From IMG/VR virus record IMGVR_UViG_2541047861_000014: a stretch of DNA of 37,035 bases; one strand, 5' to 3'. The position numbers and the translations under genes were made by a program. A model generated the notes under the pieces. The model was not told the DNA's origin and searched no databases. It saw only the letters and a list, made by a program, of their open reading frames with translations. This DNA is from a virus. Its lineage: Duplodnaviria > Heunggongvirae > Uroviricota > Caudoviricetes. How positions within the stretch are numbered: the stretch's first letter is position 1; the number at the start of each line of letters is the position of its first letter. Positions 7,317 to 7,948 of this stretch are shown here, in pieces.

Positions 7317-7351
7317 TTTGCTGCTCCTCATCATATCGACCCTGCAAGGTC

Positions 7352-7488
7352 GGTTGGTTTCTCCACAAAACAGAGAAGAACACCTGCGGTGGCAGCCGCC
7401 CGGATGGATTGGGTTATGAGCCCGTCGTCCGGTGATGCTCTTCTCTGTTTTGTAAAAAGAGCGGTACCAGCCGGAAGCAAGTGTACAA
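7352..7488 (-). promoter_or_regulatory. Structured 5' leader element (two stable stem-loops) in the PL transcript; candidate cis-acting RNA or sRNA
   Basis: Perfect 15-bp inverted repeat ACAAAACAGAGAAGA (7354-7368) / TCTTCTCTGTTTTGT (7428-7442); perfect 10-bp inverted repeat GCGGTACCAG (7449-7458) / CTGGTACCGC (7479-7488); no ORF of 60 aa or more on the minus strand between 7548 and 7984. Confidence 0.45.
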
Positions 7489-7916
7489 ACTGGTACCGCC
7501 AAAGCAGTGGCTGTTGTGGTGGGGTTGTCACTCAGGCGTATGGTCAACCTGACAATCCGGTGTCCTCAACGGGGAAAGAGTAACCCAGCCATACTTACCG
7601 CCGCGCCATTTCGCGGATGACCACAACGCTGAGAGCACTTAGCCAGTTACGGCACCACACTTTGTCGCGGCTCCATAAATGCCCTCATCGTTGCACCCTG
7701 GTCTCTTCCCAGGCGTCAAACCGGATCGCCACGCTGGTTAGGCGTCTTATCAGCATCATCATTGACTTGCACATTCCGGCTACCTGGTTTGTTTGCCCTA
7801 GCAAGGAGTGGATTGTCCCCTTTAACGTCCCCAGACCGCTAACGACGCATGTGCCATACGCCGTGTTACAACCAAATTTTGTTTGAATCTTGCCTGCCTC
7901 ATGTTTCTTTTGGATA

Positions 7917-7945
7917 CATTATGTATCTCATGGGTACATTGTCAA
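7917..7945 (-). promoter_or_regulatory. PL-like early-left promoter with overlapping operator palindrome
   Basis: Minus strand reads TTGACA - 17 nt - ATAATG; spacer carries ATGTA-N9-TACAT (7921-7939), the same palindrome type as at PR. Confidence 0.45.
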
Positions 7946-7948
7946 GTA

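Follow-up and report, generated by a model that had tools for sequence, protein, structure and literature searches.

How lambdoid phages without an N protein (SfV, ST64B, cdtI, mEp460 and several Stx2 phages) pass their early-left terminators is unexplained. Our literature searches on antitermination in N-less lambdoid phages turned up only a speculative remark in a 2025 genome paper, which guesses 'maybe put-like' (PMC12315714). The question arises again in a 37,035-nucleotide (nt) Caudoviricetes sequence, IMG/VR record IMGVR_UViG_2541047861_000014 (the window, meaning the whole of this DNA). Here the stretch 7317–7948, between a PL-like promoter and the first early-left gene, had been predicted to hold a structured leader with two inverted repeats, possibly a put-like antitermination RNA or a small RNA (sRNA). 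We find that this leader is no spacer with two hairpins: five structured-RNA modules, each conserved independently of the others, make up its minus strand in the transcription order D, P6, C, B and A. On balance, we regard it as a noncoding leader of the dicBF type, and its 5′ domain, D, may influence transcription elongation in cis.

The PL-like promoter lies directly beyond the terminator (7973–7954) of a gene for an S24-peptidase cI-like repressor (7985–8659, minus strand; Pfam), within a lambdoid immunity region, and a promoter is annotated at the homologous place in the Ayreon GenBank record. From the inferred transcription start (~7910) to ATG 7316 the minus-strand leader measures ~594 nt. 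The original prediction had put it at ~580 nt; its description of a noncoding, highly structured leader behind PL was borne out, the whole leader folding better than shuffled sequence (z = −4.05; 0 of 100 shuffles) and signs of coding being negative. The interval 7317–7910 on the minus strand is the untranslated leader of a repressor-controlled early-left operon. As predicted, six leftward genes ending in xis follow; a Pfam scan agreed, giving yfdP-like, DUF2303, YfbR-like HD and two DUF551 products and a 64-amino-acid (aa) HTH_17 protein, which is xis-like yet falls under the Pfam cut-off. Pfam gives no family for the product of the first gene; homologues of this gene are annotated at this place in mEp460, Ayreon, Stx2a_1447 and ST64B (sb37), mostly with the same start. 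A consensus scan of the minus strand from 7918 to 7316 gave no promoter-like site.

Could the region instead hide a protein, either a small N-like antiterminator or a first gene extended N-terminally from TTG 7547? Contrary to the earlier statement that no minus-strand open reading frame (ORF) reaches 60 aa, the ORF list contains a 66-aa GTG ORF (7331–7531, minus strand) and a 197-aa TTG-started upstream extension of the first-gene frame (6954–7547, minus strand), besides an 89-aa plus-strand ORF (7617–7886) and a 26-aa arginine-rich ORF (7822–7902, minus strand), and plus-strand ORFs are annotated here as hypothetical proteins in some GenBank records. Neither the 66-aa nor the 197-aa ORF looks coding. 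The 66-aa and the 89-aa plus-strand ORFs have no Pfam match, and homologues of module A measure 93, 94, 95, 96, 97, 101, 112, 116 and 120 nt, differences that are not multiples of three and disrupt the frame. The longest open frame switches strand and frame across the 51 representatives of module D described below, the stems of modules D and A carry compensatory substitutions, and the phiV10 record has no coding sequence in the gap, its locus tag p05 being skipped. The 26-aa ORF (MRQARFKQNLVVTRRMAHASLAVWGR) begins 8 nt past the inferred transcription start, overlaps helix P1 of D and lacks a Shine-Dalgarno sequence; there is no room for it in phages where D begins 5–6 nt past the −10 element. 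N-like small ORFs in the leader were rejected for lack of Pfam matches, frame-breaking lengths and shifting open frames. Nothing supports coding in the leader, and we rate the chance of a hidden protein as close to nil.

An N-like protein was not found among the scanned products: the leader ORFs and the first gene gave no Pfam match and the scanned PR-operon proteins no N family, the rest of the window lying outside this search. The yfdP-like first gene product has an N-terminus that is not arginine-rich, and no lambda-type N was found as the first PL gene. The same N-less layout occurs in the related phages Ayreon, mEp460 and Stx2a_1447. The view that this phage has Q and no recognisable N agrees with these scans, Q lying at 14411–15205 (PF03589).

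BLAST searches against phage genomes gave whole-leader matches of 88–99.7% to 2H10, cdtI, Ayreon, Stx2c phages and mEp460, with 2H10, cdtI, mEp460 and Ayreon at 98–99.7%. Sub-intervals had other partners: 7317–7521 matched SfV and SfII; 7353–7459 matched ST64B and Klebsiella and Citrobacter phages; 7505–7627 matched many Escherichia coli prophages, including K-12 Qin; and 7621–7877 matched phiV10, TL-2011b, epsilon15-like phages, P1, P7 and D6. Conservation is thus mosaic, the modules recurring separately in other phages. Of the 5426 complete E. coli genomes, 4703 have a match to at least part of the leader. An Rfam/Infernal scan, proposed along with the original prediction, assigned no family to the leader: D, P6, C, B and A had no match in Rfam 15 (gathering threshold for the whole window, E-values up to 10 for 7250–8050), and the surroundings of the cI terminator gave weak chance matches only.

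Both inverted repeats are perfect, as predicted. The first pairs 7365–7379 with 7439–7453 (15 bp, 59 nt between, extendable to 25 nt at 84%) and the second 7461–7470 with 7490–7499 (10 bp), with 19 nt between its arms and not the 20 nt given before. The two hairpins are also conserved, with compensatory changes in other phages, so that the lack of conservation or covariation named beforehand as refuting the prediction was not observed. They cover only the last quarter of the feature, however, and the modules upstream of them had gone undescribed. Nor are they put-like: the 10-bp repeat belongs to a predicted DicF-type terminator, and the 15-bp repeat forms the outer stem of a junction of three helices in the 5′ untranslated region of the first gene. 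For the locus as such, the put-like idea was sound in spirit; it was attached to the wrong hairpins and the wrong family. From sequence comparison, the only plausible antiterminator candidate is module D (7868–7694), upstream of both.

Table 1. Features of the early-left leader and its borders (coordinates of the window)
Feature	Position	Strand	Detail
PL-like sigma-70 promoter	7918..7945	−	TTGACA (7945–7940), 16-nt spacer, CATAAT (7923–7918); 11/12 matches in consensus scan
Inferred transcription start	~7910	−	leftward from the PL-like promoter
Module D, double-pseudoknot RNA domain	7694..7868	−	175 nt; covariation, covariance model R1
D helix P1	7864–7859 with 7847–7842	−	loop UAUGGCACAUG
D pseudoknot PK1	GCACAU 7854–7849 with AUGUGC 7774–7769	−	P1 loop with part of the invariant motif
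D helix P2	7839–7831 with 7787–7779	−	encloses variable hairpins
D invariant motif	7784–7766	−	GGUAGCCGGAAUGUGCAAG
D hairpin P4	7746–7731	−	family loop UUCACCA
D pseudoknot PK2	AACC 7739–7736 with GGUU 7722–7719	−	family form: P4 loop CACC with GGUG
D hairpin P5	7713–7697	−	CCUGG-GAAGAGA-CCAGG; family form CCUCG-GAAGAGA-CGAGG
P6 long stem	CAACGAUGAGGGCAUU 7693–7678 with AAGUGCUCUCAGCGUUG 7640–7624	−	extent 7624..7693; variable insert enclosed
Module C, pseudoknotted domain	7513..7627	−	homology to Qin and phage P1, pairing counts
C closing stem	GUUGUGGU 7627–7620 with ACCACAAC 7520–7513	−	
C hairpin H1	7616–7601	−	
C pseudoknot	GUAUGG 7594–7589 with CCAUAC 7543–7538	−	
C hairpin H2	7588–7570	−	
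C stem	UUGUCAGG 7555–7548 with CCUGAGUGACAA 7536–7525	−	
Module B, DicF-related hairpin and U-tract	7454..7504	−	stem 7499–7490 with 7470–7461 (10-bp repeat)
Module A, three-way-junction RNA	7365..7453	−	outer stem is the 15-bp repeat; second inner hairpin variable
A first inner hairpin	7424–7411	−	CGGGCUCAUAACCC; 14-nt identity to initiator-tRNA anticodon arm
Remaining 5′ untranslated region of first gene	7317..7364	−	small hairpin 7352–7337 and GAGGAG 7329–7324; read from sequence
First early-left gene, yfdP-like, 120 aa	6954..7316	−	ATG 7316; upstream Shine-Dalgarno GAGGAG 7329–7324

Two IMG/VR scans together with named phages yielded 248 instances of D (198 unique, 51 clusters at 93% identity), and its structure was defined on an alignment, A2, of 39 representatives. 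In this alignment 92.4% of cells are paired, as opposed to 29–48% when the 3′ partners are slid by 1–3 columns. Sixteen of 32 pairs change on both sides, compared with 3–7 in the slid controls, and the observed values were reached by 0 of 500 shuffles. PK2 has been compensated independently at locus L231 (GGUC with GACC) and in the window (AACC with GGUU). PK1 never varies in the alignment, and covariation neither backs nor contradicts it. Because D contains invariant U-G and frequent G-U pairs, its functional strand is the PL-transcribed minus strand. About 70 positions are invariant or nearly so and are concentrated in the junctions and pseudoknots. A covariance model of D, R1, scored the window copy at 134.5 bits and found no other in the window. 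Copies of D found by BLAST also carry the 19-nt motif, and the full-length D model gives 160 bits to a copy from Kosakonia that an independent pattern had picked out. A contig scan with GGCACATGN{4,8}AGCGGTC was discarded as too unspecific, since re-screening 100 of 120 loci with the D model left one true D (Kosakonia sacchari). A full-text search of the literature library found no paper containing the D core. D, C and A are not in Rfam 15 and are unannotated in the GenBank and RefSeq records examined, and they appear to be undescribed RNA families.

Among the 5426 complete E. coli genomes, 1833 carry a match to the D core, with 554 matching places on plasmids, and no annotated feature lies beneath any of the matches listed. 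The host range of D rests on named phages of Escherichia, Shigella, Salmonella, Klebsiella and Enterobacter, plus Kosakonia; one further D-bearing phage is labelled Stenotrophomonas, a doubtful host label. D is found in lambdoid and epsilon15-like phages and, at an internal place, in P1-like phages, that is, in three unrelated virion types. A promoter-like site of at least 9/12 lies within 90 nt upstream of D in 39% of the 51 representatives versus 2.2% of control windows (p = 8e-13). In phages with a strong promoter-like site, helix P1 starts 5–53 nt from the −10 element, and in the window it begins ~46 nt past the inferred transcription start. In mEp390 and Stx2a_1447, which have no N, D again stands right behind the repressor gene. 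In epsilon15-like phages a promoter, D, P6, a tRNA-Arg gene and a DicF-like terminator lie between the terminase and portal genes. Epsilon15 itself (L255, 1503–1595, plus strand) has a shortened 93-nt D of 38 bits that partly overlaps an annotated RNase III processing site, with annotated repressor and integration host factor (IHF) binding sites ~200 nt away. Enterobacter phage Tyrion (L130, 450–514, minus strand) has an Rfam match to int-alpA RNA (44 bits) in the same small leftward gene cluster as D.

Downstream of D the arrangement differs between phages: P6, C and a DicF-like hairpin; in epsilon15-like phages, P6, tRNA-Arg and a DicF-like hairpin; a protein gene; or, in P1, ban. At locus L160 the protein gene comes directly after D, without a processing stem. 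Because some of the downstream elements are untranslated, translational control is unlikely, and the role of D should lie at the level of transcription or RNA. The three unrelated virion types argue for a host partner rather than a phage-specific one. Taken together, the 5′ position, the varied downstream elements and the three phage types make it most plausible that D, like put, acts on the synthesis of its own transcript via a host partner.

The three modules after D place the leader beside the dicBF region of the Qin prophage. In most family members P6 directly follows P5 as CAAC-GAUGAGAGCAUU, an insert of 30–130 nt and then AGUGCUCUCAGCGUUGUGG. RNAalifold on minimal constructs gave no structure, owing to a 1-nt register difference; the alignment-free comparison of 17 distinct strand pairs gave a mean of −19.9 kcal/mol for cognate versus −14.3 kcal/mol for non-cognate strands, with 0 of 10000 permutations as good. 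The resulting 16–17-bp duplex might serve as a processing stem of RNase III type. Its 3′ strand (7624–7640, minus strand) has the consensus (A/G)UGCUCU-YYYY-GUUGUGG, with GCUCU nearly invariant although in a stem. The boxA sequences of rrn operons and lambda are UGCUCUUUAACAA and CGCUCUUA. This strand resembles them, but in P6 it is base-paired, so that the likeness is an unverified lead. The GUUG at 7624–7627 is claimed both by the base of P6 (CAAC 7693–7690) and by the closing stem of C (CAAC 7516–7513); these pairings are mutually exclusive and could form a co-transcriptional switch or a processing determinant.

Module C has 98.3% of its cells paired, compared with 37–57% in slid controls, and four doubly changed pairs, one of them in the pseudoknot; its model has modest support, from few independent variants. 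C is 88% identical to the Qin ydfC-dicF intergenic region, in an alignment that ends just upstream of the Rfam DicF match, and in Qin the same P6 stem precedes module C and dicF. A further match to C lies in P1, over the opening ~100 nt of the ban leader and ahead of the annotated 'dicF-like region'. After GUUGUGG comes either domain C or, in epsilon15-like phages, a genuine tRNA-Arg(UCU). ARAGORN and the Rfam tRNA model found no tRNA in the window, and the same tools find tRNA-Arg at the position of C in phiV10, SPN9TCW and BUCT711. A reading of C as a degenerate tRNA was dropped; acceptor-like and CCA-like features fail across homologues, and the pseudoknot model fits better.

Module B (CUUUGGCGGUACCAGUUU...CUGGUACCGCUCUUUUU) has a predicted free energy of −21.2 kcal/mol and agrees with the intrinsic-terminator pattern, having a 10-bp GC-rich stem, GCGGUACCAG...CUGGUACCGC, followed by UCUUUUU. 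Our built-in terminator scan allows loops of up to 8 nt and missed B, whose loop is 19 nt. By its sequence B is a predicted intrinsic terminator hairpin of DicF type and a candidate sRNA 3′ end. Such a hairpin lies downstream of D in at least 14 of the 51 representatives, 12 of which fit a strict sequence pattern. B shares with Qin DicF the UUUGGCGGUAxCAGUUU core, a hairpin with U-tract and the place directly 3′ of C. The DicF ending CCGCCCUUUUU is common to most relatives of B, and the window's copy ends CCGCUCUUUUU. DicF is produced by early Rho-independent termination and RNase E processing, with an alternative 3′ end from RNase III (PMC9438474). The suggestion of a processed sRNA fits module B, given its DicF position downstream of domain C as in Qin. 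Both Qin dicBF (ydfABC-dicF-dicB) and P1 ban have the order P6, C and terminator-hairpin sRNA place within a repressor-controlled early operon; in the window, unlike in Qin, the array lies directly behind PL, with D in front instead of ydfABC. By this homology P6, C and B are the counterpart of the Qin ydfC-dicF noncoding stretch and of the segment with which the P1 ban leader opens. The kinship with DicF makes part of the locus a variant of a known thing, whereas D, C and A appear to be new families.

Module A occurs in 148 phage instances (71 unique), mostly directly after a DicF-type terminator ending in '...CCUUUUUAC', and it precedes the yfdP-like gene both in the window and in ST64B. Its RNAalifold consensus (−41.2 kcal/mol) has 33 pairs, nine of them with compensatory double changes. 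Over 14 nt its first inner hairpin is identical to the anticodon stem-loop of the initiator tRNA of E. coli, and the identity takes in the CAU loop and the run of three G-C pairs. By contrast with the tRNA, the fourth stem pair of A is mismatched, a few homologues read CUCAUUA, and ARAGORN and Rfam find no tRNA. A full mimic of initiator tRNA was rejected, as the match is confined to the anticodon arm and position 37 is U in some homologues. The hairpin is possibly a decoy or ligand for something that reads the initiator anticodon arm.

These modules suggest the following course of events. After induction, PL transcripts would either stop at B or read through it. Those stopping at B would yield a ~455-nt noncoding RNA, from which cuts in the P6 duplex and around C would free a DicF-like small RNA, as for DicF. 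Those reading through B and A would supply the six early-left genes, including the xis-like one. Expression of the first early-left gene requires read-through of B. Since no promoter was found between B and the genes, and no N protein either, efficient read-through needs a leaky terminator or a cis-acting aid. D would be that aid if, folding as the RNA emerges, it acted on the elongation complex and conferred resistance to Rho and intrinsic terminators. Such an antitermination step, put-like in function and not in family, is our tentative proposal, which we place somewhat short of an even chance.

Alternatively, the leader may be a processed noncoding-RNA precursor only, in which D, C and the DicF-like RNA are stable or trans-acting species (host-directed regulators, sponges or decoys), B is simply leaky as in the dicBF operon and D has no effect on RNA polymerase (RNAP). 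Much of the array agrees with this. P6-C-B is homologous to dicBF, where partial termination and processing by RNases E and III are documented; the large loop of B and its run of only five U residues are those of a typical weak terminator; the length of the P6 duplex suits RNase III; epsilon15-like phages have a genuine tRNA within the same array; D can stand alone, as at locus L150; and the reciprocal put tests described below were negative. What a mere precursor does not account for is the strong bias of D to the 5′ end of transcription units, a position that a trans-acting RNA does not need, and the arrangement at L160. We consider the precursor-only explanation an appreciable possibility, though clearly less than even.

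Several further observations weigh against a cis-acting D in a dicBF-type leader. Qin dicBF expresses dicB past the DicF terminator without D, so that a leaky terminator may suffice. In P1 and D6, whose ban operon opens with C plus a dicF-like region, D is internal to the operon, after tRNA-Ile and ~2.3 kb from the ban promoter. At locus L150 (2062–2215, plus strand) a promoter and D stand alone, followed by the terminator of a convergent 268-aa gene; in this D, possibly a decaying copy, PK2 and P5 are degenerate. ST64B and F1055 keep P6, a C-like domain, the terminator and A and have another 5′ element, so that D is not indispensable for this type of leader. The ORF-free PL leader of ST64B (L256, 1466–2280, minus strand) runs to 815 nt without D: after a GC-rich 5′ element come P6 and a C-like domain, whose closing stem pairs GUUGUGGUG with CACCACAAC, and then a long terminator hairpin and A; that of F1055 (L257) is equally long. 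An R1 scan found no second, putR-like copy of D in the PR operon. The alignments were gathered by motif-anchored searches from sequences related by descent, which inflates the apparent invariance of the motif; the 19-nt motif, having been a search motif, is partly invariant by construction. On the DicF side, where Hfq-dependent pairing with ftsZ and other mRNAs is characteristic, B lacks the 5′ third of DicF and differs in the 3′ arm of the stem, and the Rfam model RF00039, which scores Qin dicF at 76.7 bits, gave no match at the gathering threshold in the window nor at E-values up to 10 on 7250–8050; it also fails on the related hairpins of 12 other loci.

The remaining contrary points concern put. 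Our put set comprised HK022 putL, HK022 putR and the GenBank-annotated putL-like RNA of HK639, and the covariance model R2 built from these three recovers them at 72–99 bits. At E-values up to 10, R2 gave no match in the window, nor in eight further loci that bear D or are related, and R1 had no match to HK022 putL or putR or to HK639 putL. As the two models fail reciprocally, membership of D in the put family was rejected. The put elements of HK022 and HK639 suppress terminators in cis without phage proteins, and mutations in the rpoC zinc-binding domain block them. Like them, D is a structured RNA encoded in cis a short way behind PL, in an N-less lambdoid phage; it shares their early-promoter-proximal location, and the HK639 record likewise annotates putL only. 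The pattern ACGGCG-N7-CAUGCGUCG, picked after the similarity had been seen, matches once in the window, at 7864–7843 in helix P1 of D, with 0 matches expected by chance. It corresponds to the base of put stem I, ACGGCG...CAUGCGUCG being identical at 15 of 15 nt to putL A9–G14 plus C26–G34, including the CAUG bulge with U28, and AGCG follows in the same order. The invariant CGGAAUGUGC of D resembles CGGCAAUGCUGC of put stem II, part of which (residues 59–64) lies at the centre of the RNAP interface. The put residues named here, among them the essential U28 and 59–64, follow PMC9378689. Both resemblances were noticed after the fact and serve as leads only.

One could nonetheless take D for a true, expanded put element, with P1 as stem I, P2 and the invariant motif as stem II, and binding to the zinc-binding domain of the beta-prime subunit. 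Besides the failure of R1 and R2 to cross-detect, the size of D speaks against this: its ~175 nt, with two pseudoknots and five helices, compare with ~70 nt and two stems in put, which makes D 2.5 times longer with three extra helices. D also differs from put in being single-copy, with none in the PR operon, and in occurring in epsilon15-like podoviruses and P1. The equivalent of put G35 is not conserved, and the put-like motif is confined to E. coli-type D, the P1 stem covarying away elsewhere and its identity being gone in most D clades. An expanded put element is therefore very improbable in our estimate.

Lambda N/nutL offers a second comparison. It has the same genomic place, right behind PL, and likewise faces terminators; here, by contrast, no N-like protein was found in the scanned ORFs and the boxA-like sequence is base-paired. 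The loop of nutL boxB is GAAGA, and P5, a 5-bp hairpin with the purine-rich loop GAAGAGA, is reminiscent of it, an unverified lead. D might also work like a riboswitch, tying early-left transcription to the sensing of a metabolite or ion; it lies within a 5′ leader, has a compact pseudoknotted fold and concentrates its near-invariant positions in junctions and pseudoknots. Yet no riboswitch or other Rfam family matched even at E-values up to 10, no alternative terminator/anti-terminator pairing or sequestering of a ribosome-binding site is visible (no U-tract separates P5 from P6), tRNA and sRNA are among the elements downstream of D, and D occurs only in temperate phages without associated metabolic genes. 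A sensor of this kind is, in our view, highly doubtful.

Elsewhere in the window, the integrase gene (386–1609, plus strand) is on the strand opposite to the early-left operon, and an IS3-family orfA/orfB pair (1787–3060, minus strand) and a 239-aa AT-rich ORF (3231–3950, plus strand) lie between the integrase and xis-like genes. Rfam matches to isrK (9902–9978, plus strand, 55 bits) and C4 antisense RNA (10003–10090, plus strand, 83 bits) fall within ORF 9542–10378, whose product matches the Pfam Ash family; this PR-operon locus resembles an antirepressor or immunity module under RNA control, of the P1/P4 type, here in a lambdoid prophage. The cspA thermoregulator model has two full-length matches, at 15973–16412 (160 bits) and 19428–19844 (105 bits), both on the plus strand, which indicate two cold-shock-protein genes with their 5′ untranslated regions downstream of Q.

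For the problem of antitermination without N, the window offers a concrete object: a covarying 175-nt double-pseudoknot RNA at the 5′ end of an operon, upstream of a defined terminator. Whatever the mechanism, D, C and A are absent from Rfam 15 yet very common, Shiga-toxin phages included. DicF belongs to a wider modular array of P6, C or tRNA, and a terminator-hairpin, found in lambdoid, epsilon15-like and P1 phages, and an anticodon-arm mimic of initiator tRNA turns up ahead of yfdP-like genes. The furthest-reaching proposal, rather unlikely as we see it, is that D represents a new class of nascent-RNA element, distinct from put, which binds the host elongation complex and confers processive resistance to Rho and intrinsic terminators. 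If so, D would be common to N-less lambdoids (of the SfV, cdtI, mEp460 and Stx2c types), epsilon15-like podoviruses and P1-like plasmid prophages, driving early operons of noncoding RNAs and protein genes, and about one-third of sequenced E. coli genomes would carry an unrecognised RNA antiterminator.

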